Below, piece after piece: positions 4,681 to 57,884 of a stretch of 64,000 bases of DNA (position 1 is the stretch's first letter; each line of letters opens with the position of its first letter). The notes beneath the pieces were generated by a model that had not been told where the DNA came from, did no database searches, and worked only from the letters and a program-made list of their open reading frames with translations. Source of the stretch: a virus. Taxonomy: Duplodnaviria > Caudoviricetes. Position numbers and translations under genes: made by a program. The DNA lies in IMG/VR virus record IMGVR_UViG_2639762779_000001, positions 76,320-140,319 of that record; one strand, written 5' to 3'.

Positions 4681-4720
4681 TATACTGAATACGTCCACAT
4701 GAAATTGAAAGAGGAAAAAT
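4681..4720 (+). promoter_or_regulatory. conserved promoter/operator/RBS module, copy 1
   Basis: TATACTGAATACGTCCACATGAAATTGAAAGAGGAAAA. Confidence 0.75.
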
Positions 4721-4728
4721 CATGAGCC

Positions 4729-4772
4729 AAAAAGCATCCTTCCCACGTCAAAGAAAAACGTGGAAAGGATGC
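4729..4772 (-). terminator. Rho-independent terminator of 4806..5822
   Basis: GCATCCTTCCCACGT/ACGTGGAAAGGATGC stem followed by T5 on minus strand. Confidence 0.7.
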
Positions 4773-4805
4773 TGTAATACTTTGGCGGCAGAGGGTCTGA
4801 AAAAA

Positions 4806-5822
4806 TCAGAAACCAACAGAACTGCAGGGAACCCAAGTTCCAGGCTTTCCACTCGTGTCTGTTACGGAACACATCTGCTCGTATTCATCTCCACTCGGAG
4901 TTGGAGCTGGTGCAGGGGCGGTGGTCCTCGGTGCCGGTGCCGCGTTCCCCCTTCCGGTACTGGTCCGCTGGTAGGAGCCACCGGATGAGGTGGAGCGGCG
5001 GTAGGTGGTGTTCGAATACGGATTCGACTGCGCCGCGGCCGCCTGAGCCGCCGCTGCCGCGGCTGCGGCCTCCTCGTCGGCCTTGGTCTTCGCTGCGATC
5101 GAATCGTTCACGCCCTTGATGGCCAACTCCAATGCCTTGCGGGCCTCGTCGAGCTTCGAAGGCTCCTTGCCGTCCTTGAGCTTGTTCCCGGAATCGATGG
5201 CCTTGGTCAGGGTCTCGCGGGTCGCGTTGTCCTGCACCTTGCCGTCGGAGTCCTTGAGGAGCTTGGACGCTTCATCGACCTTCTTGGCGAGCGCGTTCTT
5301 CGCGGTTTCCAGGGTCTTCGCGGCCTTGGATGCGGTCACGGCCTTCACGGCTTCCGACAGGCTCTTCTCGTGGGATTCGTACCATTTCGCTTGGGAATTC
5401 AGCTTCACGGTCGCCGCATCCAGGCCATCCTTGCCGTCGGTCACGCAACCCTCATACCCGGGCGCCGTTTCCTTCAACGCCTTGGCCAGGGCATCAACGG
5501 TCTTCGAATCCTTCACCTGATCCGCCTTGATGGCGGAAGCATCGGCAGCAGCCCCGTTGACCAATGAGTTGTATTCGTTGGCGGCGCCACGCAGCGTATC
5601 GCTTGCCTGGGCGCACGCTGACTTCGCCACGTTCAATTCATGAGTAGTGTATGCATGCCATCCACCCAGACCGGCTCCGATCAGCACGACGATGGCGCCT
5701 GCGGCGATGGCGGGAACCAGCCACTTGGGACGCCTGCGCATCGTAGACTCCGTGCTCTCGATACCGGTCTCCGTCGGGGGAGTGGTATCCTCGACGATAT
5801 CGTTCTTCTTTTCCTCGTTCAT
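4806..5822 (-). CDS. membrane-anchored coiled-coil extracellular protein
   Basis: GGAGA RBS; N-terminal TM helix, Ala/Lys-rich helical body, Ala and Ser/Pro linker, C-terminal Cys pair. Confidence 0.85.
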   Translation of the reverse strand: MNEEKKNDIVEDTTPPTETGIESTESTMRRRPKWLVPAIAAGAIVVLIGAGLGGWHAYTTHELNVAKSACAQASDTLRGAANEYNSLVNGAAADASAIKADQVKDSKTVDALAKALKETAPGYEGCVTDGKDGLDAATVKLNSQAKWYESHEKSLSEAVKAVTASKAAKTLETAKNALAKKVDEASKLLKDSDGKVQDNATRETLTKAIDSGNKLKDGKEPSKLDEARKALELAIKGVNDSIAAKTKADEEAAAAAAAAQAAAAQSNPYSNTTYRRSTSSGGSYQRTSTGRGNAAPAPRTTAPAPAPTPSGDEYEQMCSVTDTSGKPGTWVPCSSVGF

Positions 5823-6122
5823 TGCTGTTGTTCTCCTTGGTGGTTCTTCGCTGATTATCGTCCACCCTGTGGATGGGCAGGCGATTCGCGAACGTGTTTT
5901 ATTTTTTGTTCAGTTTCAGTCTTACCTGTCAATTGCGAAACGTAAAGCTGCGAGGCGGAGTGGCCGCAGCTTATATATAGGGGAGTTGTTGCCTTTTCCA
6001 CAAAAAACGTTTTTTTCATATTTTTTAGTGTTAATTGCGCAATCTACGGCTAGTCTTGTTTTGTTGTAGGCACCATGGGAAATTCCCCGTGCCGGTGAGA
6101 TAGTCAAGATTAAGGAGACGAT

Positions 6123-9100
6123 ATGGGGAGGATCCTCAACAACGTCAACCATGGTCCGGGCTTGCTGAAACGTTTGGGACGGATCGTTGCGGCATCGGTC
6201 GCAGCCGTCGCTACGTTGGCGGGTGGCATGCTGGTTGCGGGCACCGCAAACGCTGCCACCGCGCAGGGGCCGGGCTACTGGTTCAACCCGTTCAACAGCG
6301 GGCTCGTGTATGCGGGCCACCACGGGTTTGCACTCGGCGTGCAGGGCACGCGCAACGGGCGTCCCGCGTATTGCATCCAGATCGGCGTGGCCGGTATCGA
6401 CACGAACGCGGGCACTTGGGCGGATGCGACCGACGCCACGTCGAAGGTCGCCGCGTACATGGTCGACAAGAACGCGGGCGACATGAGCGATTTGACCCAG
6501 GCGGCTGTCGCCTACGCGATCCACGAGCATCTGGACGAGCACCCCACCTGGTGGGCCTCCGTGAAGACGCACCAGACCGGTCTTGAGGGCGGGGACTGGA
6601 ACACGGTCGCCACACGCGCCGCCCAGTTGTGGCAGGATGCGGCCGACAACATGCCCGCCAACATTAGGGCCTCCTACAAATACACGCAGGGCGAACGCAA
6701 AGGCACTTATGACCCAGGTATCAGAACCTCTACCGGAGCTTTCATAAGTGGGCTTGCATATACATTGAAAATCAACGGTCCGGCCGTGTTTGATGCGACC
6801 GGCACAAATACCTACACCGGTACGACCACTGGTGCAGCCGAGCATATTGCGTGGACGGCAACTGGCAACGGTTCTGTGAGTGTCACAGCATCTCATAAGA
6901 TATCCAAGGCCATTAAGCAGAGCGCTCCCGGTCAGGATCTGTTCGCGCCCACCGATCCTGAGACCACTTCCGCGAACATCACGTTTAATGTACGTCGTGA
7001 TTTCCAGCCGACCGTGTCCACCCAGGTCGGCAGCAAGATCGTGCCCAGGGGCGCGAGGGTGTCCGACAGGGTGACCAGCGGCATCAAGCAGGGCGACGAA
7101 TGGGCCAACGGGGTCAACGTGACCGCCAAAGGCTACTACTACACGCTCGACGCCCGGCAGGCCAACGGCCTCGCGGTCCTCAAACAGAACGGGAACGAGA
7201 AGACCGCCGACTATTTGAACCGCGTCGCCAAGACGTACGGCAACCCGGCCGCCACCGCGGACGCCACGTTCTCCGGCCCCGGCCAGACGCAGGCCGTCAC
7301 CGCGAAGAACGCGGACGGCACCGACTACGTCAACCCGCAGGACGGGCGCATCGGCACCTGGGTGTGGGCGATCCTCAAGAACGAGCAGACGCAGCCCGAC
7401 TACATCACCGCCGACTACACGGACCCGTTCGGACAGGCCACCGAATCCGACATCCACAAGACCGGCCCGAACCATGACTCCACCGTGCTCGAACAGTACA
7501 CGGGCCTGAACAAGGACATCATGGACACGATCACCATCGGCGGCCTGCCCCAGGACTACGGCCAGTTCAACACGAACCAGGCCTACGGCTTCGGTGGCGA
7601 CGTGAAGGCCAAGATCCGCGTCTGGTGGGCGGGCTCCGGCACCGGCGACCGCACGCAGGACGAGAAGTTCAAGCCGAACACCCAGGCCGAGCCGGCCGCG
7701 GACGCCAACCACAGGCTGCTCGGAGAATGGGAGGTCCCCGCGGGCAACGGCACGTACAAGGTCGGCGGCGGCAGGATCACGTTCCGTCCCGCGAACGCCG
7801 GCAAGGCGCAGACCGTCGCGGAGGATGTGAACATCACCGCGACCGACGCGAGCCAGACCGGATACTACGTGTTCGTCTACGACTTCCCCGGCTCCGACCG
7901 CGCCAGCGCGTTCAAGAGCGCGTACAACGACCCGTGGGAGCGCAGCTTCGTGGAAAAAAACCCGGCGACCGTTGACCTGACGTCCAACGTGAGCGCCATC
8001 GAGGTCGGACAGGGCGAGGAGTTCCACGACGTTGCACACATCAACGGCAAGGTGTCGCGCGGCAGCTACGTGCTGTTCACCGCGTACGACGCGGTGCCCG
8101 GACGCCCGGACACCAGCGCCGCGAAGCTGCTCGACGCCGTCCGCGTGGACATCACCGACGAGCAGGCCGACGCGTCCGACAAGAGCGCGTTCGACGTGGT
8201 CAGCCCCACCGTCAAGACGGACAAGACCGGTAACGTGTACTGGCAGGCCGAACTGTACAACGCGGACGGCGAACCGCTCGCCACGCACGAACTCGGCATC
8301 GAGAGCGAGACCACCATCGTGCGCGGCGTCAGCGTCACCACGAAGGTCAGCAGCGAGCAGGTGTACGTCAACCAGAAGTTCCACGACACCGCCATCATCG
8401 ACGGCAAGGTGGGGCGCGGCAGCTACGTCGTGTTCGACGCGTACGGCCCGTGCGACGACGAGTACACGGACGGTGCGCCCAAGCTGCTCGACAGCGCCAA
8501 GGTCGCCATCCCCGACGGCGTGGCCGACAAGAGCGCATGGAACACGAGCTTCACCATCGACAGCCCCGACATCACGTCCAAGACGGCGGGCAACGTGTAC
8601 TGGCAGGCCAAGGTGTACCGCAAGGACGGGCTGCTGCTCGCCCAGCACGACTTGGGCATCGCCGGCGAGACCGTGAAGGTCATGCAGCCGACCATCACCA
8701 CGCAGGTCACCAAGACCACCGTCCATCCGGGCGAGGAGTTCGCCGACAAGGCCACCATCGAAGGCAAGGTCGAGCGTGGCAGCTACGTCACCTTCGACGC
8801 CTACGAGCCGGTCAGCGGCGACCCCGACACCACTGCGGGCAAGCTGCTCGACAGCGCGCGCGTGGACATCACCGACGAGCAGGCCGACCGCTCCGACAAG
8901 GAGAAGATAACGGTCACCAGCCCGAAGACGAAGACCGACAACTCCGGCAGCGTCTACTGGAAGGCCACCCTGCACGCCAAGGACGGCACCGCCATCGCCA
9001 CCCACGACTTGGGACTGCCGTCCGAAACCGTGTACGTCGCGCCCGGCGGCTACCTCAGCTCGCAGGCGCAGGTCATGGGCGCCACCGGCGAACCGCTGTA

Positions 9101-12100
9101 CGACACGATCACCGTGTACAACGAGTCGGACGGCCACGAGGGCAACGGCAACAGCAACCCGAGCGGCATGATCGGCTCGATCCCGGCCGGCTCCCATGTG
9201 ACCGTGGAGGCCTACCGTCAGGACGGCAACAACACGGCATCCAAGAGCAACCTGATCGGCACGCACGACTTCCCGATCGACATCAGCCAGATGCGGGACG
9301 GGAGGCTCACGTTCAAGGCGCAGGACAAGGCCTTCACCATGACCGACCCGGGCATGGTCTACTGGGTCGCGACCCTGAAGACCGCGAACGGCGCCGTGTT
9401 GGACAAGGGCGTGTTCGGCGAATCCGGCGACCAGCACGGCACCGGAGTCGAGAGCATGGAACGCACCCCCGTGCAGGAGTACGACACCACCATCAGCAAG
9501 AAGTGGTTCAGCGTCAACTCCGACGAATACGAGGAGAAGACCGTCAGCGTGTATGACGTTCTCAAGCAGACCTCGTGGCGTCAGCACAAGGGCGACGTGG
9601 CGACCCTGATCGGCCAGACCGCGGACGGCACCAAGTACCAGTTCGAGGTGTGGAAGCAGGGCGACGGCGACCAGACGAGCGACAAGCTCATGTGGCACGG
9701 CGACAGCCACGAGATGCCGCAGTCCAAGCTCGCGCCGAACGACCCGAAGTCGGATTCCGTCTGGCAGCAGATGAAGTCCGAGACGTTCACCATCGGCAAG
9801 GACTGGGGCGTGGGCGCGTACTACGTGCGCGTGCTCGTCACCAACCCGAACGTGGACAACACGGTCGAAGGCAAGCAGAACGTGATCAAGTACACGGCCG
9901 CCCGCGACGAGGCCGAAACGTTCCGCGTGTTCAAGGTCACCTCCACATCCGCCGAAAAGCTGTGGACCTCGAACCAGAAGCACGTGCAGGACATCCTGCA
10001 CGTGGAGGGCACCATGCCGAAGGGCAGCAGCCTCCTGACCGAGGTCTGGTCGACCGACGACAAGGGCAACAGCCTCAAGAAGGTGGCCGAATCCACGAAG
10101 CTCACACTCGACAAGGATGTGACCAACGCGGACATCAAGGCCCCCGTCATGGACAACCCGGGCAAGGCCGGAAGCTACCAGTTCCGCTTCCGCATCTGGA
10201 GCCCCGACAACCTCGGCGGAGACCCGGACATCGACCCGGGGAACGTGATCCTCGACGACTCCTGGAAGCAGGGCGACGGATACGCGAACAGGAACCTCAT
10301 CTTCGACGGCAGGAACGTACCCTCCGAGCACTTCGAGATCGTCAAGATCACGACCAGGGTCGCAGGCACCGCGAACATCCACTCCTACAAGGGCGAGAAC
10401 TACGTGAACGTCACCCATCCGACCCAGATCGGCGACCACGCCGACATCGAGGGCAAGATACTCGACGGATACAAGCTCGGCTTCGAACTCTACAAGCAGG
10501 ATACCGGCAAGGACACGTCCAAGGACACGCTCGCCGCCACCATCCAGCCCACGGACCTGCACGCCGCGCAGACCGCGTTGGACTCCGCACTCACCTCGCT
10601 CGACAAGCCGGGCGACTACTACTGGGTGTGGGTGTTCCAGAAGGCCGACGGAAGCAAGTTCCAGCCCGACGGCGAGACCCAGGTCCGCTCCGACCACCGC
10701 ATCAAGGACGAAAGCCTGCACGCGGCCCGGATCACGACCACCACCGCCAAGTGGACCGCCAAGGGCGGCGAAACCCAGGACGTGGCCCTCATCGAGGGTT
10801 GCGTGCCGGATGACGCCATCGCCAACTTCGAACTCCACGAGTACGAGACCGGCGACATCGCGGCCACCACCAGCGACAAGACCCTCAAGCAGCTCGGCTA
10901 CAAGACGTGCGCGAACGGCGACAGCAAGCAGACCATCGAATCCGAGAAGATCACCGTCCCGGACGCGAAGGACTACTACTTCGTCGAATCCGTCCACTTC
11001 CCGGGCGAGGACAAGGATCACGGGTTCCACCGCGGCGACACCAAGGTCCCGTACGAGTCGACGCGCAGCATCGACGCGACCACGGAAACCTACGTGGAGC
11101 AGGCGCTGGGCACCGCCGTATCCGACCGCACCGACCTCGAGAACATCAAGTACTCGAAGAACGACGGCAAGGACATCCGCGACGACCTGACCGGCCCGCT
11201 GACCGCAAGCTGGGAAGTGTGGAAGCAGGCGGCCGGCGACGACGAGTCGAAGGACGTGAAGCTCACCACCCTGGCCGACAAGGACCGGGCCGTCAAGCTC
11301 GAATCCGGCCAGACCACGGTCGACAGCCCCGAATGGAAGCCGAGCCAGACCGGCGTCTACTACTTCCGCGTCATCATCCGCGACGAGAACGGCAAGACGC
11401 TCAAGTACGGCGCGGCCCGCGAACCGTCCGAAACGATCCATATCATCAACGCCAAGTCGGCGACCGATGAGGTGATCGAGGAAGGCGGCAGGCTCCACGA
11501 CAGGGTCACCATCAACGGCCCGGTCGTGGAAGGCACCATGATCGGCTGGAGCATCTACAACACCGGCGACGGTGCGGCGGATGCGGACACGCTGGTCGAA
11601 CAGTGGAACACGCCGCAGGATGGCGCATACGTGATCACCGCCGAGGATGCCGCCAAGGCGGCCAAGGACGGGAAGATCACCATCACCAGCCCGAAGGCGT
11701 ACGAGAAGGGCAAGGCGGGAGACCGCCCGTACTTCGTGTTCAGCCTGACCGGCCCCAGGCGCGGCAAGGACGGCCGGCCCGTCAAGCCCGCCAAGGACAA
11801 GGACGGCGTGTACACGATGGACCACCTGATGACCGACGGCCTGCTCCCGATCGGAAGCGAACCGCAGGTCGATGGGGATGATGCGACACCGGAGACCGTG
11901 CCGGCCGCCTTCTACATCGATCCGGCGCGCACACCGTCCGAGACGGGCAGCGTCATCAGGATCACCACCACCGCCAGCACGCACAACGCGACCGTGGGCG
12001 ACAGGATCCATGACACCGCGCACATCACCGGATACGTGCCCGAAGGCTACTGCGTGAAGTTCGAGTACTGGCAGCAGAACGACGGGGATGTGAGCAACGA

Positions 12101-12458
12101 CAAGCTGCTCACCACCACCGACTGCGTGACCGTGCCGGCAGGCGCCACCAGCGTTGACTCCCCGGAGATCACCGCCGACAAGGAGGGCACCTTCTACTGG
12201 CGTGAGCAGCTGATCCCGGTCAAGCCGGAACAGCCGACCGGCCCGGACTCCGACAAGCCGAACAAGCCGACCACCCCGGTCACCTATGGCAAGCCGCGCG
12301 TGCCGGATGAGACGGTGAGCGTGCATCCGCTTGCCTCCACTGGTGTCGGTGCTGATCTGTTCGCCGGTCTTGGCCTGCTTCTCCTTGGCGCAGGCACGGT
12401 GATGGGCTTGGCTGGAGCCAAGCGTCGTCGCCGCATGATTGGCCGACACAGCGCCTAA
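6123..12458 (+). CDS. 2111-aa sortase-anchored adhesin, putative N-terminal thioester domain and Ig-like stalk repeats
   Basis: AAGGAG RBS; signal peptide; AYCIQ and TQAA motifs; repeated D.A.I.G...YW...H..G...ET domains; LASTG-TM-KRRRR sorting signal. Confidence 0.92.
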   Translation: MGRILNNVNHGPGLLKRLGRIVAASVAAVATLAGGMLVAGTANAATAQGPGYWFNPFNSGLVYAGHHGFALGVQGTRNGRPAYCIQIGVAGIDTNAGTWADATDATSKVAAYMVDKNAGDMSDLTQAAVAYAIHEHLDEHPTWWASVKTHQTGLEGGDWNTVATRAAQLWQDAADNMPANIRASYKYTQGERKGTYDPGIRTSTGAFISGLAYTLKINGPAVFDATGTNTYTGTTTGAAEHIAWTATGNGSVSVTASHKISKAIKQSAPGQDLFAPTDPETTSANITFNVRRDFQPTVSTQVGSKIVPRGARVSDRVTSGIKQGDEWANGVNVTAKGYYYTLDARQANGLAVLKQNGNEKTADYLNRVAKTYGNPAATADATFSGPGQTQAVTAKNADGTDYVNPQDGRIGTWVWAILKNEQTQPDYITADYTDPFGQATESDIHKTGPNHDSTVLEQYTGLNKDIMDTITIGGLPQDYGQFNTNQAYGFGGDVKAKIRVWWAGSGTGDRTQDEKFKPNTQAEPAADANHRLLGEWEVPAGNGTYKVGGGRITFRPANAGKAQTVAEDVNITATDASQTGYYVFVYDFPGSDRASAFKSAYNDPWERSFVEKNPATVDLTSNVSAIEVGQGEEFHDVAHINGKVSRGSYVLFTAYDAVPGRPDTSAAKLLDAVRVDITDEQADASDKSAFDVVSPTVKTDKTGNVYWQAELYNADGEPLATHELGIESETTIVRGVSVTTKVSSEQVYVNQKFHDTAIIDGKVGRGSYVVFDAYGPCDDEYTDGAPKLLDSAKVAIPDGVADKSAWNTSFTIDSPDITSKTAGNVYWQAKVYRKDGLLLAQHDLGIAGETVKVMQPTITTQVTKTTVHPGEEFADKATIEGKVERGSYVTFDAYEPVSGDPDTTAGKLLDSARVDITDEQADRSDKEKITVTSPKTKTDNSGSVYWKATLHAKDGTAIATHDLGLPSETVYVAPGGYLSSQAQVMGATGEPLYDTITVYNESDGHEGNGNSNPSGMIGSIPAGSHVTVEAYRQDGNNTASKSNLIGTHDFPIDISQMRDGRLTFKAQDKAFTMTDPGMVYWVATLKTANGAVLDKGVFGESGDQHGTGVESMERTPVQEYDTTISKKWFSVNSDEYEEKTVSVYDVLKQTSWRQHKGDVATLIGQTADGTKYQFEVWKQGDGDQTSDKLMWHGDSHEMPQSKLAPNDPKSDSVWQQMKSETFTIGKDWGVGAYYVRVLVTNPNVDNTVEGKQNVIKYTAARDEAETFRVFKVTSTSAEKLWTSNQKHVQDILHVEGTMPKGSSLLTEVWSTDDKGNSLKKVAESTKLTLDKDVTNADIKAPVMDNPGKAGSYQFRFRIWSPDNLGGDPDIDPGNVILDDSWKQGDGYANRNLIFDGRNVPSEHFEIVKITTRVAGTANIHSYKGENYVNVTHPTQIGDHADIEGKILDGYKLGFELYKQDTGKDTSKDTLAATIQPTDLHAAQTALDSALTSLDKPGDYYWVWVFQKADGSKFQPDGETQVRSDHRIKDESLHAARITTTTAKWTAKGGETQDVALIEGCVPDDAIANFELHEYETGDIAATTSDKTLKQLGYKTCANGDSKQTIESEKITVPDAKDYYFVESVHFPGEDKDHGFHRGDTKVPYESTRSIDATTETYVEQALGTAVSDRTDLENIKYSKNDGKDIRDDLTGPLTASWEVWKQAAGDDESKDVKLTTLADKDRAVKLESGQTTVDSPEWKPSQTGVYYFRVIIRDENGKTLKYGAAREPSETIHIINAKSATDEVIEEGGRLHDRVTINGPVVEGTMIGWSIYNTGDGAADADTLVEQWNTPQDGAYVITAEDAAKAAKDGKITITSPKAYEKGKAGDRPYFVFSLTGPRRGKDGRPVKPAKDKDGVYTMDHLMTDGLLPIGSEPQVDGDDATPETVPAAFYIDPARTPSETGSVIRITTTASTHNATVGDRIHDTAHITGYVPEGYCVKFEYWQQNDGDVSNDKLLTTTDCVTVPAGATSVDSPEITADKEGTFYWREQLIPVKPEQPTGPDSDKPNKPTTPVTYGKPRVPDETVSVHPLASTGVGADLFAGLGLLLLGAGTVMGLAGAKRRRRMIGRHSA

Positions 12459-12466
12459 CCTCAATG

Positions 12467-12510
12467 GCGTCAGACCCCTTGTATAACCAACGACAAGGGG
12501 TTTGACGCTT
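12467..12510 (+). terminator. stem-loop after adhesin gene
   Basis: GCGTCAGACCCCTTGT/ACAAGGGGTTTGACGC; second hairpin at 12522-12560. Confidence 0.65.
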
Positions 12511-12602
12511 GTCCATGTTCTTGCGGGACGGTTTGTCTCTCCCCATCAAACCGTCCCGCATTCTCATATGAAAAGCTTTTTTTAAGAGAGGGACGAGAAG
12601 CG

Positions 12603-17934: not shown

Positions 17935-17958
17935 CCTCCTTGAATCAAATAAATATGT

Positions 17959-17997
17959 TATACTGGTGATGCCCACATAAAATAATCAGAAAGGAAC
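17959..17997 (+). promoter_or_regulatory. conserved promoter/operator/RBS module, copy 2 (ssb)
   Basis: TATACTGGTGATGCCCACATAAAATAATCAGAAAGGA. Confidence 0.7.
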
Positions 17998-18000
17998 ACC

Positions 18001-18597
18001 ATGGCTGGAGAACCACCAATCACACTCGTAGGCAACATCACCGCAGATCCCGAACAAAGGGGAGACGTAGCCAGCTTCACCATCGCCCACAACACCCGAC
18101 GACGCGACCGCAACGGGCAGAGCATGGACGGAGATTCCATCTTCATGCGATGCGCCGCATTCGGCGACCTCGCCAACAACATCCTGCAAACCTGCCACAA
18201 GGGCATGCGCGTGGTAGCCACCGGCTACGTGAAAACCAACAGCTGGACTGACAAGAACACCGGCCAACAACGCAGCAGCCTCGAAATGATCGTCACCGAC
18301 CTAGGCCTGAGCCTCCGGTTCGGCGTCGCCCAATTTCAGAAGACCAGCGGACAACAGTCCAACGGCAACGGGTATCAGCAGAACAATTACGGCGGCGGAT
18401 ACCAGCAGCCGAACAATGGCTACCAGCAAGGCGCATACAACAACTACCAGCAGCAGGGGTACAGCCAACAGGCCCTCGCACAGCCGACGGCACCGGCACA
18501 ACCTGCAGCACCCTCACAGCCCGCGATGGATCCGTGGGCTACGACCACGCCAGCCAGTACCGACCCGAACGGTGACGGCACCGACCCGGAATTCTAA
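18001..18597 (+). CDS. ssb: single-stranded DNA-binding protein
   Basis: MAGE..IT.VGN.TADPE OB-fold, KGMRVVATG, Gln/Gly-rich tail ending DPEF. Confidence 0.95.
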   Translation: MAGEPPITLVGNITADPEQRGDVASFTIAHNTRRRDRNGQSMDGDSIFMRCAAFGDLANNILQTCHKGMRVVATGYVKTNSWTDKNTGQQRSSLEMIVTDLGLSLRFGVAQFQKTSGQQSNGNGYQQNNYGGGYQQPNNGYQQGAYNNYQQQGYSQQALAQPTAPAQPAAPSQPAMDPWATTTPASTDPNGDGTDPEF

Positions 18598-21111: not shown

Positions 21112-21155
21112 CATAATTAAATGTGTCCACATAAGAATCGAAAAAAAAAGGAAAA
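21112..21155 (+). promoter_or_regulatory. conserved promoter/operator/RBS module, copy 3
   Basis: CATAATTAAATGTGTCCACATAAGAATCGAAAAAAAAAGGAAAA. Confidence 0.6.
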
Positions 21156-21163
21156 CAGGGAAA

Positions 21164-21271
21164 ATGCCCAGCCTCGTTTTTGCCTACATGCTAGGCGTGC
21201 TTCTGATGACGATCGGCTCCTACATCATCAGAGCCCAGCAGCCGCGCCCCCGGAATGGGAGGAACGCGTGA
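21164..21271 (+). CDS. 35-aa single-TM peptide (not in ORF track)
   Basis: MPSLVFAYMLGVLLMTIGSYIIRAQQPRPRNGRNA*; stop overlaps next GTG (GTGA). Confidence 0.55.
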   Translation: MPSLVFAYMLGVLLMTIGSYIIRAQQPRPRNGRNA

Positions 21272-25430: not shown

Positions 25431-25444
25431 TCAAGGAGAAGACA

Positions 25445-29673: not shown

Positions 29674-29676
29674 AGT

Positions 29677-30231: not shown

Positions 30232-30437
30232 TCCCCTGCCTCCTCGTTATTGGTGAGGTTGGCGGAACGCTCCCATCCTGAGTAGATATGCATGATGAGC
30301 AGGCATGCGGATAGGGGAAATGTGATGGACAGGATTGCCATGAGGAGTCCTGTGGTATGCCACATGAATATTCCACTGATCAGACATAGAGAGATGAGCG
30401 TCATGTTGGCGTTTTGGGTGAAGGTGTTGTTGTGCAT
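30228..30437 (-). CDS. small two-TM membrane protein
   Basis: Directly follows conserved promoter/RBS module. Confidence 0.7.
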   Translation of the reverse strand: MHNNTFTQNANMTLISLCLISGIFMWHTTGLLMAILSITFPLSACLLIMHIYSGWERSANLTNNEEAGE

Positions 30438-30439
30438 GG

Positions 30440-30502
30440 TTTCCTCTTCAAATGTTTTTTATGTGGACATATTCAGTATAACATATTTAATTCTGGCGTC
30501 AA
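30440..30502 (-). promoter_or_regulatory. conserved promoter/operator/RBS module, copy 4
   Basis: TTGACG-N16-TATACTGAATATGTCCACATAAAAAACATTTGAAGAGGAAA; a partial opposite-facing copy lies at 30548-30570. Confidence 0.8.
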
Positions 30503-30671
30503 ACCAAAAAAAATGGTTCCCGACCCTCAGAGAAGAGCCGGGAACCGGTGTCCACATAAAAAAATCTTCAAAAGGAAAGTGCAAAAAACACAACCTAAAA
30601 AATCTTTTTTTATGGCATCCGAAGATGCACTGATTACTGTAAATGCCATACTGGACAGTCTCAAATAACGA

Positions 30672-31103
30672 CTATTCGCCATCCATATACAGCTCCTCGT
30701 CGGCCACGTCATCACTGCCCTCATATACAACCACTCCATCAACATCACGATGCTCGTCGAACCAATCCTTGGCCGTCTCGACATCCATGCCTTCCGGAGC
30801 GGAGAACCGCACATACTGGCGGGTGGTTGTGAGAATAGTGACACCGTAGAGACGGTTCTCCGGCTCCTCCACGATATTGTCGTCGATATGGGTTTGTAGC
30901 CAGAACGGGAACGTGCCGCGATCTTCGGGCTGGTTCTCGTTCTCCTGTTCGGCCCAGAGTTCGGCCAGTTGATTCAGTGTGGTGTCGTTGCCGTTATGCT
31001 TCCAGCCGTCGTTTGGATAGTTGTGGAGCTGTTCGACGTTGCGGACTTCGCGGAGAATGTCGTTGCGGGTGATGTCGTCTTCGTGCATGTAGGTGCGTTC
31101 CAT
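30672..31103 (-). CDS. acidic hypothetical protein
   Basis: ATG after conserved module RBS. Confidence 0.75.
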   Translation of the reverse strand: MERTYMHEDDITRNDILREVRNVEQLHNYPNDGWKHNGNDTTLNQLAELWAEQENENQPEDRGTFPFWLQTHIDDNIVEEPENRLYGVTILTTTRQYVRFSAPEGMDVETAKDWFDEHRDVDGVVVYEGSDDVADEELYMDGE

Positions 31104-31110
31104 TTTCTTG

Positions 31111-31150
31111 TTTCCTCTTTCGATTATTTTATGTGGACATATCCAGTATA
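31111..31150 (-). promoter_or_regulatory. conserved promoter/operator/RBS module, copy 5
   Basis: TATACTGGATATGTCCACATAAAATAATCGAAAGAGGAAA. Confidence 0.8.
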
Positions 31151-31205
31151 GCATATATCTTGACAAATCAATACCATAAACACAGCACCCAATGAAGGAA
31201 AACCC

Positions 31206-31919: not shown

Positions 31920-31932
31920 GGAAGGAACGATA

Positions 31933-32778: not shown

Positions 32779-32883
32779 CATTCATGGGTTCTTGGCCCGT
32801 ATTTCTTCCGAAAGAAGTCCACGCCAAGAACCCGGTCTGCCTTTGCCAATATCTTGGGGAATATGCCTGATATTTCCGTCAAC

Positions 32884-41006: not shown

Positions 41007-41064
41007 GTTTTCTCCCCTGTAAACGTTTTTTCCGTATACATAGAATATCATCGGAGCGGGACCG

Positions 41065-45111: not shown

Positions 45112-45116
45112 CCGGT

Positions 45117-48577: not shown

Positions 48578-48578
48578 G

Positions 48579-51717: not shown

Positions 51718-51734
51718 TTCGTGTTCTCTTTTTC

Positions 51735-52112: not shown

Positions 52113-52116
52113 GATT

Positions 52117-52497
52117 TCATGCCTCGATGCTTTCACGGTCGATTCCAAGTGCCTGGATTGCGTTGTCGAGAGAGTCGGGAATGATGCCACAACAATCGCT
52201 TCCGAGCATGTCGTGGGCTTCTTCCGTCCAACGGGTCATGAGCTGGTCGAACTGGAGCGCATCCAGCTTGCCGGGGTCGATGCCGTTGTCTTCGAGGCTT
52301 CCCTTGTCGAAGTAGGTGACGCCGTACTGTCCGAACGCATCGCCGTAACCGTAGAAGTCCGGTTCGCGGAGGCTTAATCCCTTGGGCTTGTAGTTTGACA
52401 GGAATTTCAGGAAGGCCTGTGCGCCTTGCTTTTCCTCTTCGGTGAGAGTGCTGTGCTTGAGCGCGTCATATAGGTAGAAAGCGTATGCGTTGTTCAT
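52117..52497 (-). CDS. acidic hypothetical protein
   Basis: First gene after conserved module. Confidence 0.75.
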   Translation of the reverse strand: MNNAYAFYLYDALKHSTLTEEEKQGAQAFLKFLSNYKPKGLSLREPDFYGYGDAFGQYGVTYFDKGSLEDNGIDPGKLDALQFDQLMTRWTEEAHDMLGSDCCGIIPDSLDNAIQALGIDRESIEA

Positions 52498-52502
52498 GGT
52501 GT

Positions 52503-52565
52503 TTTCCTCTTTCAATTATTTTATGTGGACATATTCAGTATAACGAGTAAAAAAGAAAAAGTCAA
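52503..52565 (-). promoter_or_regulatory. conserved promoter/operator/RBS module, copy 6 (RNA ligase operon)
   Basis: TTGACT-N17-TATACTGAATATGTCCACATAAAATAATTGAAAGAGGAAA. Confidence 0.85.
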
Positions 52566-52602
52566 AGACACCACAAAAACCAAGGAGAGACACCAAAAGA
52601 AG

Positions 52603-52675
52603 TGGAGCAGACGGGAATCGAACCCGCGACCTTTTCGTTGCGAACGAAACGCTCTACCAACTGAGCCACAACCCC
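52603..52675 (-). tRNA. tRNA-Ala(CGC)
   Basis: Cloverleaf, G3:U70, loop TTCGCAA. Confidence 0.9.
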
Positions 52676-52840
52676 AATCGAGCTGCCGGTCGGATTTAAA
52701 CAGAGGCTTCTTTCCCTGTTTGTTGCCGTGTCGGCGCGGCTTCCCCTCATCTACCGAAACTGCGGGGGGTTACATTATTCGGTGCAGTCATAGGAATCTC
52801 CTTAATCTCGTGGAAACCTGGAATAGGTTTCCCTCCTGCG

Positions 52841-52913
52841 AGCCGTCGACCGGATTCGGACCGGTGACCTGCGCATTACGAGGGCGCTGCTCTGCCAGCT
52901 GAGCTACGACGGC
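52841..52913 (-). tRNA. tRNA-Thr(CGT)
   Basis: Loop CTCGTAA; T-loop TCCGAAT. Confidence 0.88.
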
Positions 52914-53055
52914 GAAAAACCGTTCCGGCATGAGGAACGGCGGATGGGCCATGCGAGCAAGGGGTTTCTAATCCTACGACCGGTTCATGCCGCCGACCGT
53001 AGACTGCTCCCATTCGGGAACCCAGTTTTTTCGCATGTGGCCACTGGGCCCATCG

Positions 53056-53121
53056 TGCTTCGACGGGATTCGAACCCGCATTACTCCAAAAACAGAGCAT
53101 CCTACCGTTAAATGACGAAGC
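53056..53121 (-). pseudogene. degenerate 66-nt tRNA-like gene, anticodon unassignable
   Basis: Acceptor and TTCGAAT arms present; anticodon arm GCTC-TGTTTTTG-GAGT. Confidence 0.6.
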
Positions 53122-53382
53122 GGTGTTGCGGATACGATGCTGGGGAAGCGGTTCTGTCAGGCTACTGAGGTGAAGGCCTGCGCCGTGACCATCGTTCCAT
53201 CCCGCCCCCAATATGGCAGCGGGCGGGTGGTGGCGTTGATATCGCATTCGCAAGAAATAGAGCGGATACGGGCGCTACGTTAATCATCGGCCTCAATTAT
53301 GAAAAGTCCTCCCAACGTATCGTTCCCAAAACAGGTAAGCGTTCAATACCTGTATGGGTGGCGTTGACGCCCGTGTTTCCGC

Positions 53383-53459
53383 TGGTGCTTTCGCCGGGAT
53401 TCGAACCCGGACTGAATGCGTCCTTAGCGCATCGCCTCTACCGGTTGGGCCACGAAAGC
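53383..53459 (-). tRNA. tRNA-Leu(AAG), short variable loop, encoded CCA
   Basis: ATGCG-CTAAGGA-CGCAT; A73 then CCA. Confidence 0.85.
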
Positions 53460-53871
53460 ATGCGCAGGCAATCCGCAGGGATATGCCCGCGCAGTCCACA
53501 ATCGATCCGGCCACTCGTGTCGAATCCTTGCACTCATGCTTGCGGTGGACGCGCATACTGCAGCGTGAGGCATGACGAGGATCACGGGCTGTGACGCCCA
53601 TGCTCCGCCGAGACCGTTCCCACATCCTGTGGGTCGGCTGACGAGAGACGCGGTCACCCACGTCTCAGGGAACCTTTTCCGCACTGGGCGGATAGGCTGA
53701 TCGGATTCGCGCCGACCCCTCCGACGGGGGCTGTTCGCATCATCCTGGAATGATGGGCGCCGGCGATAATCCGCGTGTCCGTCGAACAAAACGGAGGCGC
53801 GGATATCGGACACGATCCACATGGTCATGACTGCCCCGCCGGGAACTCCCAACGGGCATGGACTCGTATCG

Positions 53872-53943
53872 AGCGGTGTACGGGAATCGAACCCGCATCA
53901 TCAGTTTGGAAGACTGAGACACTGACCGTTGTGCTAACACCGC
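53872..53943 (-). tRNA. tRNA-Gly(TCC)
   Basis: GCG start, loop CTTCCAA, U73. Confidence 0.9.
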
Positions 53944-53999
53944 GAAAAAAAGGAATCCACGGACACGCTTCACCTTGATTTTTTCTAGTGGATTCCTTA

Positions 54000-54073
54000 G
54001 CGGACATCTCGGGCCTCGAACCCGGACCTCCATCCACAGGGGATGGCGTGCTGTCCATTTACACCAATGCCCC
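54000..54073 (-). pseudogene. atypical tRNA, Gln(CTG)-like
   Basis: TGGTGTAA D arm; CCATC-CCCTGTG-GATGG with C33; imperfect acceptor and T stems. Confidence 0.55.
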
Positions 54074-54201
54074 GCATGGTCGCGCGTCATGATCACATGC
54101 CCATGCGTTCGCCTGACCGAGGATTCGTTACAACGGAGGCCGGTCGGGACTCCAATGGTTTCGATTTTTTGAGAGTGCCAAACCATCAAATGCCGCACTC
54201 G

Positions 54202-54274
54202 TGCCCCCGGCCGGAGTCGGACCGGCTGCGCCCGGTTTAGGAAACCGGCGCTCTATCCACTGAGCTACAAGGGC
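54202..54274 (-). tRNA. tRNA-Arg(CCT)
   Basis: Loop TTCCTAA; T-loop TCCGACT. Confidence 0.88.
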
Positions 54275-54383
54275 GATGGCATCGTTTTCGCGGCCTGGGG
54301 TGATGCCGAAACCCTGTATGTCCGGTACAACACATCGTTCGAGTGTAGAGGAAGAAATCGAAACGAAGAATGCTGCCGCTGAG

Positions 54384-54457
54384 AGGCGGTTGTGGGGGTC
54401 GAACCCACCGTTCACGGTTTTGCAGACCGTTGCCAACAGCCGGTTGGCGTAACCGCC
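54384..54457 (-). tRNA. tRNA-Cys(GCA), atypical D arm
   Basis: Loop CTGCAAA, U73. Confidence 0.8.
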
Positions 54458-54464
54458 GATTATG

Positions 54465-54535
54465 TTCCTCCTCCTGGTCTTGAACCAGGACTATGGGTTC
54501 CAAAGACCCGTGTGCTGCCGTTACACCAAGGAGGA
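54465..54535 (-). tRNA. tRNA-Gln(TTG)
   Basis: Loop CTTTGGA; TGGTGTAA D arm. Confidence 0.87.
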
Positions 54536-54654
54536 ATGTGCGCGAACGCATCGGACACGTATGCCCGACTGCGTTCCGCCATGCCGATCCAACCCTTTTT
54601 GCTGACTGGATTCCAGGCCCTGTCCCGTGGCCTAACACATTGTTGATCGGCCAG

Positions 54655-54741
54655 CGGATGGTGCGAGAGTCGAACTCGCCAGGGACTTCCGCCCCCAACA
54701 GTCTTAGCAGGACTGCGCCTTTGCCGCACGGCCCACCATCC
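54655..54741 (-). tRNA. tRNA-Ser(GCT)
   Basis: Loop CTGCTAA, long variable arm, G73. Confidence 0.85.
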
Positions 54742-54813
54742 ATGCCGGTGTTTGCGATTCAGGGCACACCGGCTAAGCCTCGATAGAGCCGCCAAGAACT
54801 GCCAGCGGTTTCG

Positions 54814-54898
54814 CGGAGGATGAGGGAGTTGAACCCCCGGAACCTTGCGGTTCGTCTGTTTTCAAGACAGGTACGTTCGACCGCTCCGCCAATCCTCC
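54814..54898 (-). tRNA. tRNA-Ser(TGA)
   Basis: Loop CTTGAAA, long variable arm, G73. Confidence 0.87.
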
Positions 54899-54902
54899 AA
54901 CG

Positions 54903-54977
54903 TGCTCCCGGTGGGATTCGAACCCACGACCAGCCGGGTAGAAACCGGCGGCTCTGATTCCACTGAGCTACGGGAAC
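54903..54977 (-). tRNA. tRNA-Arg(TCT)
   Basis: GCCGG-TTTCTAC-CCGGC. Confidence 0.88.
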
Positions 54978-55122
54978 AAACTCGGAAGAGCATCTGGTTC
55001 AAGAAAAGACATCGAAGTTTTTCTTACGCTCGTCCGAGTTTTCGCCTTGTTTCGCGCGTGGTCTGCGATACCACCGTATCTGTGTGTTGGTGCGCTTACG
55101 TGTGACCTTTTGCCTCACGTCG

Positions 55123-55195
55123 TGTTTCCGGCAGGATTCGAACCCGCACTGATTGATGTTTAGGACCATGCCTCTACCATTTGGGCTACGGAAAC
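55123..55195 (-). tRNA. tRNA-Leu(TAA), short variable loop, weak anticodon stem
   Basis: TGGT-CCTAAAC-ATCA with C33; Leu-type D arm. Confidence 0.65.
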
Positions 55196-55364
55196 TTGGC
55201 CAACTGCCCCCCACCACGGTTGACCGGCGTGGCTGATACCAACCCAGGCTGCTGGATAGAGAAGAGAAAAACCAGAGCAAGGCTTTCGGGGAAAATTAAT
55301 ACTGTTCTCCCCCCCTCGTGTGACAGGAATCGGTTTGCACATTGAAGAAGGAGAGAACAGCAAG

Positions 55365-55440
55365 TGCCCCCAGCGGGGTTCGAACCCGCAACCTCTGGTT
55401 CCGTAGACCAACGCTCTGAATCCGATTGAGCTACGAGGGC
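55365..55440 (-). tRNA. tRNA-Arg(ACG)
   Basis: Loop CTACGGA. Confidence 0.9.
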
Positions 55441-55768
55441 GATGGCACATTTCGATCCCTTAACGACGTACGCCTGTGCCGGGCTGTGTTCGGCATGGTC
55501 CTCATTGATGTCGCTCCGGAGACCATCGCTGCAAAAAGAGCGTCCTCCCCATCCGTCCTGAATGACAGATGGAGGGAATCGGGAGACTGGATTGGGTTTT
55601 TACCAGCAACGTCGAGGACAAACGAGATCATGTCAGATCCCCTCTGGACGTGCCGCCGGTTCGGTCGCAAACCACCCTGCCGGGCCCGGCTCATCTTATC
55701 GTCTCGTTTCCGATGCGATTGTTCGATCACTCCCTGAAAGCAGTCCATTGATCGGATGGATTGCTTCG

Positions 55769-55840
55769 TGCCTCCGTCTGGAATCGAACCAGCATCCACG
55801 GTGCTTCAGACCGTTGCTCTACCATTTAAGCTACAGAGGC
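55769..55840 (-). tRNA. tRNA-Phe(GAA)
   Basis: ACGGT-CTGAAGC-ACCGT. Confidence 0.88.
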
Positions 55841-56004
55841 GCCGTACGACGGACTGTTATGGAATCTGGGTTATAGGCCCTTCCCCGGTCCGTCGCACTG
55901 TGTGTTTTCCTTCCCCTGTTTCGCGCGCGGCCGGAAGAAGAAGCTGCCGCAGCCTATCTGATAATAGATTGATGCGCTTATGCATGGCGATGTACCAAGC
56001 ATCG

Positions 56005-56076
56005 TGCCCCGACGGAATTACGATATCCGGACCCAGTGCTTAAAAGGCACCTGCTCTTCCTCTGAGCTACCGGGGC
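56005..56076 (-). tRNA. tRNA-Lys(TTT), non-canonical T-loop
   Basis: Loop CTTTTAA; T-loop ATCGTAA. Confidence 0.8.
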
Positions 56077-56218
56077 GATGGCATGTTTCCTTATTCCTTG
56101 ACGCTGCGTGCCCATGCCGGGGCTGTTCGTCCATGTTTTCTCCGGAAGCGTCCACATGGAAAGGACGGCTGCGAGTCCCATTGTTGGATCGGATCCATTG
56201 TTCTGGTTTTCCGGATAG

Positions 56219-56290
56219 AGCGGATGACGGGGTTCGAACCCGCGGTTTCCTGCTTGGGAAGCAGGCGTGCTACCACTGCACCACATCCGC
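56219..56290 (-). tRNA. tRNA-Gly(CCC)
   Basis: Loop TTCCCAA, U73. Confidence 0.9.
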
Positions 56291-56370
56291 ATGGCCGTGC
56301 TTTTTTCGGATACGTCGCACGGCGGTGACGTATAGTCCGCCAGCCGAAAGAGGGATGGCTGGTCTCCGAG

Positions 56371-56444
56371 TCGGATTGACAGGATTCGAACCTGCGACCC
56401 CATGCTCCCAAAGCACGTGCGCTACCAAACTGCGCCACAATCCG
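56371..56444 (-). tRNA. tRNA-Pro(TGG)
   Basis: CGG start, loop TTTGGGA. Confidence 0.92.
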
Positions 56445-56447
56445 ATA

Positions 56448-56699
56448 TTTTTGACAGGACTCCGTGGCTTACCAGCTACGTACGTGCCCTATTAAACGCG
56501 ATTTCCTCAGATTCTGGCACCGTCTTAAGCCAGTACCACGATGCTTTCATCTTGATTCTTTCGCGTGTTTAGACTGTCTCCACCGGTTTTCCTAACCTCC
56601 TGCGAAACCTCCCCTTCCAAGCGTGCGACCTAGGATTTGCACGCTCTTCCAGTTTTTCTTCACAGTCCTCGACTCTCCGGTTGTAAGACCTGTCAAAAA
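56448..56699 (-). ncRNA. candidate ~250-nt structured ncRNA of unknown family
   Basis: 11-bp closing stem TTTTTGACAGG/CCTGTCAAAAA with nested helices. Confidence 0.55.
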
Positions 56700-56701
56700 C
56701 G

Positions 56702-56761
56702 TGGCTCCGGGTGGATTCGAACCACCAACCATGCATGCTCCGCCGTTTGAGCTACGAAGCC
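56702..56761 (-). ncRNA. 60-nt tRNA-like RNA lacking the anticodon arm
   Basis: GGCTTCG/CGGAGCC acceptor, GCTC/GAGC D stem, GGTGG-TTCGAAT-CCACC T arm. Confidence 0.7.
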
Positions 56762-56949
56762 GGCCGGAACGCGTCGTCTCATGGCGCGTATCATTCCGGC
56801 TTTTACCGTTCGCTGTCAGACTAATGAGACTGGCCTGACAGCGGATAAAATCCGTTTGTTGTTTAGATACTGTGTACAAACGAAAACCACAGCACGGCCT
56901 TGAAGGCGCCGCTACCTGTTAATCCGCCTGTTTGCAACCAGGCGGATAG

Positions 56950-57031
56950 TGGTGGCGGGAGGACTCGAACCTCCGGTGTTTCCTTGTCGCAGATTTACAG
57001 TCTGCTGCCGTCGCCGCTGGGCCACACCACC
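56950..57031 (-). tRNA. tRNA-Tyr(GTA)
   Basis: GCAGA-CTGTAAA-TCTGC, long variable region. Confidence 0.9.
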
Positions 57032-57136
57032 GGTGCATCGCTTCTGCCCGTCACGGTGCGATGCATACCGTGCCCGATTCATCTGTACCCGCAGACCGTG
57101 AGTCTGCACAAGCTCATGGGAGATGGATCAGGGTCG

Positions 57137-57530
57137 TGGAGCTGCCGAGAATCGAACTCGGGTCTAGCCTGCTGTCAGCCTTTGCTTGCTGTCACGTGCG
57201 TATCCGACGCGGCTGATCCCCACTTGCGTGGGGAAGATCATCCGTGGACAGGGTGCGTTCGGCGAACCTGCACGGCTTGTAGACGATGTTCATATGCTGG
57301 CCGGGCGAATCCATCGTCCGACTGTCTGACCAGTCCGATTCAAAGTTTTCCGATTCTGGCCTGTTAATCGGCAATGGGGTCAGAATCGGGTTTCACGCTG
57401 CGAGGGTGAAACGGGAAGAAGAAACGGTGTTGGCGTTCGTTCTTGTGGCAAGGTTGATGACGGTTGTCCTTGCCGGCCTCCGGCACGTAGCAAATGGTTT
57501 CCTGCAGGCTATCGAAAGCCTGTCAACCCC
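57137..57530 (-). ncRNA. ssrA: tmRNA, tag ANTVSSSRFTLAA*
   Basis: 5' GGGGTTGA..TTCGA; 3' GACCCGAGTTCGATTCTCGGCAGCTCCA; tag ORF 57434-57393 ending LAA. Confidence 0.93.
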
Positions 57531-57821
57531 AGTGATATGGGTTGAACGGCGTGAACTTCAGTCGTTCAACCCATGTCTTTACTGCTGCCACCTTGCAAGG
57601 GTGGCGATTCCAAGGTCTTGTCCTCACGCCCATGCGGGCGTGAGTTGCCTTGGTAAGAAATGTTTTTTGGTGTCTCTCTTCGGTTTTCAATCGTCCTGCA
57701 TCACGTGCGTGGTGGTAGGGGTTGGCTTCCTACGCAGGATGCTTCACGCCGGCGTGGATTGCTCTTGGCCGGTTTGAAAGGAGAGAGTGTTTTGACTTCC
57801 TGTTTGGGCAGGAGGTGTTGG

Positions 57822-57884
57822 TTTCCTCTTTCGATTCATTTATGTGGACACATTCAGTATAATATGTTTCTTGAGCTCTGGCAA
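57822..57884 (-). promoter_or_regulatory. conserved promoter/operator module, copy 7 (tmRNA/tRNA array)
   Basis: TTGCCA-N17-TATACTGAATGTGTCCACATAAATGAATCGAAAGAGGAAA. Confidence 0.82.

Follow-up and report, generated by a model that had tools for sequence, protein, structure and literature searches.

On IncP plasmids (KorA/KorB) and inc18 plasmids (omega), many promoters share a short operator whose regulator can double as a partition protein; the operators, whose positions vary, are either palindromes or arrays of heptads. In the IncN CUP system, repeated promoter-containing elements stand before several plasmid genes and make up one regulon; it has been proposed that segments are lost when the repeats recombine (PMC3490853, citing Delver and Belogurov 1997). 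In Cluster A mycobacteriophages of the L5 type, a single repressor encoded by the element itself binds more than 20 asymmetric sites as a monomer (PMC9283540). Here we analyse a promoter module of about 40 bp that recurs along a 64,000-nucleotide stretch of DNA (the window, meaning this whole stretch) from the IMG/VR record IMGVR_UViG_2639762779_000001. The module is the 34-bp promoter motif of the Bifidobacterium megaplasmid pMP7017, which was published in January 2024 with the same general interpretation (Dineen et al., PMC10832533).

Dineen et al. (Microb Biotechnol, 2024) reported the motif at 19 sites, overlapping the -10 region and upstream of many genes, with the consensus AWAYATGYTATACTGAATATGTCCACATAAAAWA and with start sites that they call 'presumed'. 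It had first been seen at highly expressed units of log-phase, plasmid-carrying cells, and 13 further sites were then found. The authors described a 'presumed regulon' of 56 genes (~24% of coding capacity), considered the motif 'likely a transcription factor binding site', and reported that it precedes comparable genes in homologous plasmids and is absent from bifidobacterial chromosomes (PMC10832533). The passages of that paper that deal with the motif name no regulator, and they mention neither a TGn extended -10, nor an asymmetry of conservation, nor a variant box in a second lineage; a full-text literature search gave no later paper on the 34-bp motif. The promoter class is real, strongly non-random and functionally constrained, and the regulon proposed in a preliminary description of the window is correct at its core and already in print. 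What is new relative to the paper, all of it computational, is the extended -10, the asymmetry of a conserved box that follows it, a second dialect of this box and a set of candidate regulators.

The box and its promoter

The window is the reverse complement of positions 114,406-178,405 of pMP7017 (Bifidobacterium breve JCM 7017, NZ_KM406416.1, 190,178 bp), with 100% identity over window 30000-34000. Below, 'record' coordinates are those of NZ_KM406416.1 and all others are those of the window. Five B. longum plasmids of 169-198 kb matched parts of a 4-kb test piece of the window. For comparison we read the B. longum plasmid CP143940 (W01) and the first 200 kb of G001, a 217-kb relative in IMG/VR whose backbone proteins are 30-60% identical to those of pMP7017; box counts were made in five relatives, namely these two and G002, G003 and G004. 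We refer to the lineage with the pMP7017 form of the box as lineage A and to the divergent one as lineage B.

Across the whole of pMP7017, 27 sites lie within 9 mismatches of the 28-nt core of the motif and 24 within 7, and a family-wide pattern finds 25; our scans thus give 24-27 copies, depending on the threshold, against the 19 sites of Dineen et al. (PMC10832533). The published consensus also covers the six full copies in the window. As expected of the target of a global repressor, the motif is a common cis element that overlaps many promoters of one plasmid. In the 24 copies, whose selection at 7 mismatches or fewer somewhat inflates all conservation figures, the TA and the final T of the -10 hexamer, the G right after the hexamer and the box core GTCCACAT are invariant (23-24 of 24). 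Column by column, the box holds G, C, A, C, A and T in every copy, its T and its second C each being kept in 23, and the 5 nt that precede it vary, the consensus base being present in 17-19 copies. The fifth position of the hexamer is C in 20 copies, G in three and T in one; it is never A. The core GTCCACAT occurs 32 times against 5.3 expected.

Upstream of the hexamer, TG was found at -15/-14 in all 63 unique IMG/VR instances, at a position that the search pattern had left free, and the motif promoters can therefore be classed as TGn extended -10 promoters. By plasmid, TG is present in 17/25 copies in pMP7017, 20/21 in W01 and 27/41 in G001. A -35 element matching TTGACA in at least four of six positions accompanies only 8 of the 25 pMP7017 copies (9% of random positions). 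In these respects, TG at -15/-14, a TAnnnT -10 and a dispensable -35, the promoters resemble the extended -10 class at large. Ordinary members of that class, in contrast, have nothing conserved at +1 to +12 and no fixed C at the fifth position of the hexamer, whereas the motif promoters have both.

The gap between -10 and box was 6 nt in 87/87 copies, which had been collected by a pattern requiring that gap, and the leader ranged in the same 87 copies from 22 to more than 100 nt. Since the distance to the -10 is fixed and the leader is variable in length, the box belongs to the promoter and not to the ribosome-binding site (RBS). Counting 7 nt past the hexamer places the predicted +1 on the G of GTCCACAT, such that the box would span approximately +1 to +12. 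RNA-seq contigs from four runs of one study, which are too sparse for calling starts, have no end that coincides with a copy, and coverage is uniform within each contig. Predicted leaders were unstructured as RNA in all four cases folded (z -0.2 to +0.4). In the single-strand promoters of leading regions (Frpo/ssi), a long imperfect hairpin of single-stranded DNA makes up the promoter. Every copy of the longer form GTCCACATAA is intergenic, in the sense orientation and upstream of a gene, except for one within a gene of the XRE type (record 107051), which is also in the sense orientation; the four GTCCACAT matches in other coding sequence are without the AA extension.

Our preferred, still tentative reading is that the box, at the predicted start site, serves as the operator of a protein which the plasmid encodes and which adjusts about 25 transcription units in concert; we give this reading a little less than an even chance. 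The motif promoters, a class specific to this plasmid family, have an extended -10 (TGnTATACT) and usually no usable -35, and would be used by the host RNA polymerase with its housekeeping sigma factor. The invariant and asymmetric box GTCCACATAAAA, exactly 6 nt after the -10 and thus at the predicted start, is followed by a short, A-rich, unstructured leader and a Shine-Dalgarno sequence. TGn and TATACT would let the housekeeping holoenzyme start without a -35, and a sequence-specific plasmid protein would occupy +1 to +12, damping otherwise strong promoters together. The units so driven would include ssb, dnaB, the recombination module, methylases, type IV secretion, parA, the sortase and surface-protein operons and the transfer-messenger RNA (tmRNA)/tRNA array. 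RNA polymerase is not known to contact specific bases at +3 to +8, and for this reason the box needs another reader; since the site is asymmetric, a monomer or an oriented binder is likelier than a symmetric dimer. One promoter class drives about a quarter of the genes in pMP7017-like megaplasmids, and the reader of the box, if identified, would provide a master switch of the plasmid family together with a compact, strong and portable promoter for Bifidobacterium genetics.

Because the box is asymmetric and always points with transcription, the monomeric repressor of Cluster A phages is the nearest mechanistic precedent. As with the stoperators of those phages, more than 20 short asymmetric sites are distributed across an actinobacterial mobile element, their orientation tied to transcription. 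However, ~80% of the boxes are coupled to a -10 from which they keep a constant distance, whereas the majority of stoperators occupy intergenic gaps that have no promoter. Stoperators also work away from promoters, where they halt elongation, and the monomer that reads them has two domains; no repressor of that kind was recognised here. The parA promoter of pMP7017, which also carries the motif in degenerate form, is reminiscent of the KorA/KorB and omega networks, but the pMP7017 motif differs from their operators in consisting of one asymmetric box whose position does not vary. Like the CUP elements, the motif consists of repeated, promoter-containing sequences before several plasmid genes (PMC3490853); unlike them, it is spread over the whole of pMP7017 and not confined to the leading region, and the host phylum differs, so that no sequence relation is expected. 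The analogy with Cluster A phages would imply a silencing role, but the genes behind the motif are reported to be highly expressed (PMC10832533).

The lack of a -35 in 17 of 25 copies is also compatible with positive control, in which a plasmid factor would read the box, or the -10 and the box together, and aid or redirect host RNA polymerase to -35-less promoters in the manner of phage middle/late activators. The strict spacing of the -10/box composite, the high expression in plasmid-carrying cells (PMC10832533) and the presence of a WhiB-family gene inside a motif-led operon of lineage A would all suit such a factor. However, TGn and TATACT should be enough for the housekeeping holoenzyme, +1 to +12 would be an unusual position for an activator, WhiB is absent from three of five relatives that carry the motif, and a Pfam scan of 197 plasmid proteins revealed no sigma factor or RNA polymerase gene. 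We consider positive control to be quite improbable.

Conservation among related plasmids

The strict pattern TATACTG-N5-GTCCACATAAA gave no Bifidobacterium match in 185,579 species genomes (596 Gb), although it matches only ~10 of the 25 pMP7017 copies, so that weak chromosomal copies could escape it. Three lone matches in other genomes (Kineothrix, Murimonas and Methanobrevibacter) are compatible with chance. In contrast to the species genomes, IMG/VR relatives contained at least 116 matching stretches, on contigs of 9-217 kb. This comparison of the replicon (~25 copies on pMP7017) with chromosomes had been suggested in the preliminary description, and its outcome agrees with Dineen et al. 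(PMC10832533) in supporting the view advanced there of a plasmid-family-specific cassette of promoter, leader and RBS that stands before many unrelated units.

The relatives carry 21-24 copies in W01 and 30-41 in G001, the latter in a dialect of its own, TGnTATACTGGAATTGTTCACACAAAA. Counted with the strict pattern, the variant box GTTCACAC occurs 17 times in G001, 16 in G002 and 15 in G004 and is missing from G003 and W01 (0 each), whereas GTCCACAT occurs 14 times each in G003 and W01 but only three times in G001, twice in G002 and three times in G004; by these counts the five relatives split cleanly in two. A 6-kb piece of G001 had no near match in PLSDB, and the divergence of this lineage may be host-specific or plasmid-specific. 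On a bolder view, the box would be an oriented 'self' tag for one megaplasmid protein, which would bind either alone as a monomer or in concert with RNA polymerase and control a quarter of the plasmid, including its tmRNA/tRNA supply, and the dialects GTCCACAT and GTTCACAC would be specificity groups comparable to the immunity groups of Cluster A; we regard this as rather unlikely.

We then compared promoters across plasmids. The core from about -15 to +8 was recognisable in 17/17 cross-plasmid pairs with matching downstream proteins (30-96% identical), being near-identical in pMP7017-W01 pairs and taking the variant form of the other lineage in pairs with G001. The flanks were unalignable in 15 of the 17 pairs and similar in the two closest. 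At the level of sequence, purifying selection on -15 to +10 between orthologous promoters is shown here. Paralogous copies also have details in common. Of the 24 pMP7017 copies, 22 have an A directly before TG, where most W01 copies have C or T, and TAATCG in the leader of one plasmid contrasts with AATG in that of the other. Such parallel, lineage-specific differences suggest that the copies exchange sequence, or else follow a common reader. The preliminary description had also suggested that the repeats provide homology for cassette exchange. At 4 of 25 copies (record 64493, 68466, 183009 and 160450), the pMP7017-W01 alignment begins no more than 5 bp from the upstream edge of the motif; this is not significantly above the 2-3 given by a rough chance estimate of our own which assumes that alignment ends fall in intergenic DNA, and so lends cassette exchange no clear support.

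Concerted evolution of this kind would be expected if no regulator were involved and the module were a strong extended -10 promoter-leader cassette, a 'mobile promoter', that was duplicated and kept uniform by gene conversion, the box serving promoter escape or the 5' end of the mRNA. The high expression at motif genes (PMC10832533) fits such a cassette, as do the unstructured leaders (4/4 folded) and the lineage-specific flank details common to paralogous copies. Furthermore, the whole cassette, including the RBS-like GAAAGAGGAAA, precedes even the non-coding tmRNA. What it leaves unexplained is the near-absolute conservation of CCACAT at +3 to +8, where polymerase is not known to read bases. 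Since the box survives at 30-60% identity of backbone proteins, a specific reader is to be preferred to drift and conversion. We regard the regulator-free cassette as unlikely, if less so than the other rivals of the operator.

Symmetry of the box

The preliminary description had seen in the box a palindrome, TATGT-N2-ACATA, bound by one dimeric repressor. The exact palindrome TATGTNNACATA is indeed present in three of the six full window copies (30460, 31130 and 52522), against 0.02 expected by chance, and in the lineage A consensus, but it is not maintained across the family. Its arms are unequally conserved in the 24 copies: the right arm (ACATA) is kept in 22-24 and the outer left arm (TAT) in 17-19. 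In the divergent lineage the symmetry is reduced to TGT-TC-ACA, with arms of 3 bp. Finally, for all centres and at every pair, the complementarity observed in the three elements (25 + 21 + 41 copies) equalled that expected from column composition. Because complementarity merely follows composition, the palindrome is without compensatory change. These alignments indicate that selection preserves an asymmetric, oriented box rather than a palindrome; the single dimeric repressor is not borne out, given the poorly conserved left arm, the absence of covariation and the 3-bp arms in the divergent lineage.

In its full form the dimer model would have the regulon switched off in established cells and induced zygotically in recipients, as in the IncN CUP system. 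Besides the lineage A palindrome, the establishment-type genes in the regulon (ssb, orphan methylases, Lar and recombination genes) speak for it, and the CUP repeats are a precedent for a leading-region regulon controlled by repeats (PMC3490853). Nevertheless, the palindrome is exact in only half of the full window copies, with the defects of arm conservation and covariation noted above, and its 2-bp spacer puts the half-site centres ~7 bp apart. Half-sites at that distance, centre to centre, are too close for a classical helix-turn-helix dimer. In addition, the copies are scattered over all 190 kb and not gathered in one leading region, and motif genes are highly expressed in the steady state (PMC10832533). 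We judge a symmetric dimer with zygotic induction to be highly unlikely.

Candidate regulators

If, as we favour, the box is the operator of a plasmid protein, its gene appears to lie elsewhere on the plasmid. In keeping with the preliminary description, which could name no regulator gene in the window, a Pfam scan of the window part of the plasmid found no DNA-binding regulator; an open reading frame (ORF) of IS3 with a helix-turn-helix (record 177109-177669) lay outside the scan and is so described by annotation only. Among small window-encoded proteins, none is conserved in pMP7017, W01 and G001 except a toxin-antitoxin partner. We consider three loci as candidates, all outside the window: an XRE-type gene, an ImmR/ImmA-like pair and a small protein encoded after parA.

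The XRE-type candidate has 217 aa (record 106877-107530), with a helix-turn-helix at residues 6-55; its C-terminal half is acidic, as judged by eye, and has no evident second DNA-binding domain. It was found in all five relatives at 42-80% identity. In the three elements read by sequence, the gene stands back to back with the box-bearing promoter of a Gp2.5/DUF2815-type single-strand-binding gene, and in G002 and G004, from coordinates only, an exact box lies within ~160 bp of it. In lineage B, the box beside the XRE gene keeps the lineage A form. Within the pMP7017 gene there is also a box (GTCCACATAAAA, record 107051-107092), downstream of which come an RBS and an ATG in frame; at the same place the W01 gene is without the box and retains a GGAG-type RBS and the ATG in frame. 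The gene may also yield an isoform that is truncated at the N terminus and devoid of the helix-turn-helix.

The second locus (record 24932-26028) encodes an ImmR-like repressor (24932-25486 of the record) and an ImmA/IrrE-type protease, a pair that W01 and G001 have conserved. An inverted repeat with 17-bp arms, GCGTGTTCCTCGTCGCA ... TGCGACGAGGAACACGC (record 24815-24870), separates the ImmR-like gene from the divergent gene next to it and is probably the repressor's own operator. The third candidate, of 118 aa (record 40761-41117), is encoded after a small ParA; the motif in the parA promoter, degenerate in pMP7017, is good in W01. We also considered the WhiB-family protein of lineage A (record 74481-74720), but this was ruled out as the general reader because its gene is missing in three of five relatives that still carry the motif class.

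Evidence against an operator

Several observations weigh against reading the box as the operator of a plasmid protein. In front of the ImmR-like gene stands another kind of repeat, the inverted one with 17-bp arms, and the XRE gene's own promoter is without a box. Lineage B retains 2-3 boxes of the lineage A form, and a strictly co-evolving specificity is therefore not supported. Tight repression is disfavoured because the genes at which the motif was seen had high expression in log-phase cells that already carried the plasmid (PMC10832533). The position of +1 is itself predicted. Moreover, conservation begins exactly at this predicted +1, which fits a role at the RNA 5' end or in the initial transcript equally well, and five box copies in pMP7017 are without a -10 yet still stand before an RBS and start codon.

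The last two observations are those on which an RNA-level element would be built, that is, a shared 5' tag of the transcripts (5'-GUCCACAUAAAA) which an RNA-binding protein, a small RNA or an RNase would read and which would set stability or translation. Box-only copies do occur before RBS and ATG within operons, and the one at record 60373 is kept in W01 (position 64042 of that plasmid); the differences between lineages are, furthermore, C/U transitions. However, the surrounding intergenic region at record 60373 is conserved as a whole and not the box alone, the distance of the box is fixed to the -10 and not to the RBS, the box forms no structure in predicted folds, and no RNA-binding candidate was found, besides the start site being only predicted. 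An RNA tag strikes us as very doubtful.

The same promoterless spacer of the dnaB operon (record 60354-60380) contains three TCCACA units in a phase of ~7 bp (ATCCACA, ATCCACA, ACAACTG, TCCACAT), largely conserved in W01. A heptad or iteron model of the omega kind was dropped, as a TCCACA search found this one cluster in pMP7017, and neither W01 nor G001 had any.

Copies within the window

The copies in the window and the features that adjoin them are listed in Table 1. With at most 3 mismatches, the 40-mer consensus matched three of the full copies (31150, 52542 and 57861, all on the minus strand), and 0/100 shuffles had any match; an ungapped scan with at most 14 mismatches added the other three (4681 and 17959 on the plus strand and 30480 on the minus strand), where small leader indels account for most of the mismatches. 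In each of the six, TATACT is followed after exactly 6 nt by G(T/C)CCACAT.

Table 1. Positions of the motif copies and adjoining features in the window
Feature	Position	Strand	Description
Copy 1	4678..4724	+	TGC-TATACT 4681-4686, box GTCCACATGAAA 4693-4704, RBS, ATG 4722
Hairpin after copy 1	4733..4773	-	17 pairs and T-run on minus strand; -29.7 kcal/mol, z -4.3
Copy 2	17956..18003	+	TGT-TATACT 17959-17964, box GCCCACATAAAA 17971-17982, RBS, ATG 18001 of ssb
Diverged copy	21112..21166	+	CATAAT 21112-21117, 7-nt gap, box GTCCACATAAGA 21125-21136, purine-rich RBS; upstream of CHAP-domain operon
Sortase-operon copy	30435..30483	-	TTGACG (16-bp spacer), TGT-TATACT 30480-30475, box GTCCACATAAAA 30468-30457, ATG 30437
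Box-only copy	30550..30581	+	GTCCACATAAAA 30550-30561, no -10; directly behind the hairpin preceding the 30480(-) promoter
143-aa-protein copy	31101..31153	-	TGC-TATACT 31150-31145, box 31138-31127, ATG 31103; protein of unknown function
RNA-ligase-operon copy	52495..52565	-	TTGACT (17-bp spacer), TATACT 52542-52537, box 52530-52519, ATG 52497
tmRNA/tRNA copy	57822..57884	-	TTGCCA (17-bp spacer), TATACT 57861-57856, box GTCCACATAAAT 57849-57838, RBS-like GAAAGAGGAAA, no ORF
tmRNA and tRNA array	52602..57530	-	tmRNA 57134-57530 (Rfam 78 bits), 18-19 tRNA genes; downstream of the 57861(-) copy

The repeated 40-bp module of the preliminary description is thus real, with six full and two partial copies where none would be expected by chance. 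Seven sites had been described as full copies; six of these stand, and that at 21112(+) is partial, its hexamer being CATAAT and its gap 7 nt. The partial copy placed at 30548(+) is present, as a box alone. The TTGnnn elements 16-17 bp upstream of three copies were recovered (30480, 52542 and 57861), and so were the units said to lie downstream, namely ssb (18001-18597), the CHAP, sortase and RNA ligase operons, and the tmRNA followed by the tRNA array. Copy 1 had been thought to lead straight into a terminator. There is a strong hairpin 40 nt downstream of its predicted +1, but the T-run lies on the minus strand, which makes the hairpin the terminator of a convergent 338-aa gene (4806-5822, minus strand). 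Since the RBS and ATG of copy 1 run into this hairpin after 40 nt, copy 1 is an orphan or antisense promoter.

Two giant surface-protein genes (6123-17876, plus strand) occupy the interval from copy 1 to the ssb copy. One encodes 2111 aa and the other, which carries the annotation InlB B-repeat-containing, 1757 aa; they are 36-40% identical to genes of G001. In the tRNA array, ARAGORN counted 18 genes (52602-57031) and Rfam added a weak one at 53055-53122. Dineen et al. placed a manA RNA motif at record 122,656-122,830 (~window 55,576-55,750; PMC10832533); at gathering thresholds, our Rfam scan gave no hits in that region other than tRNAs and the tmRNA.

Genomic context

The window's source entry is a 140-kb IMG/VR contig of pMP7017. 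Although pMP7017 is an experimentally conjugative megaplasmid, it stands in IMG/VR among viral contigs together with dozens of relatives, one of them labelled 'provirus'. Phage-like genes on pMP7017 include those for a tail-type lysozyme, DnaB, a Gp2.5-like single-strand-binding protein and RNA ligase, as well as the tRNA array. According to Dineen et al., pMP7017-like megaplasmids were present in ~10% of the gut microbiome samples mined, chiefly from infants and mothers (PMC10832533).

Elsewhere on the plasmid, type I-E cas genes (cas6e, casA, casB, cas7, cas5 and cas1) lie at record ~65,200-73,500, in an annotation without cas3 and cas2. This region is broken up by motif-led genes and is followed by a repeat array, visible as laddered self-similar alignments (record 72,570-73,520). 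Several copies of IS200/IS605 tnpA and of the RNA-guided endonuclease TnpB are also present, at window 32884-34197 (minus strand) and elsewhere on pMP7017, and one window TnpB is 99% identical to the TnpB on another B. longum plasmid.

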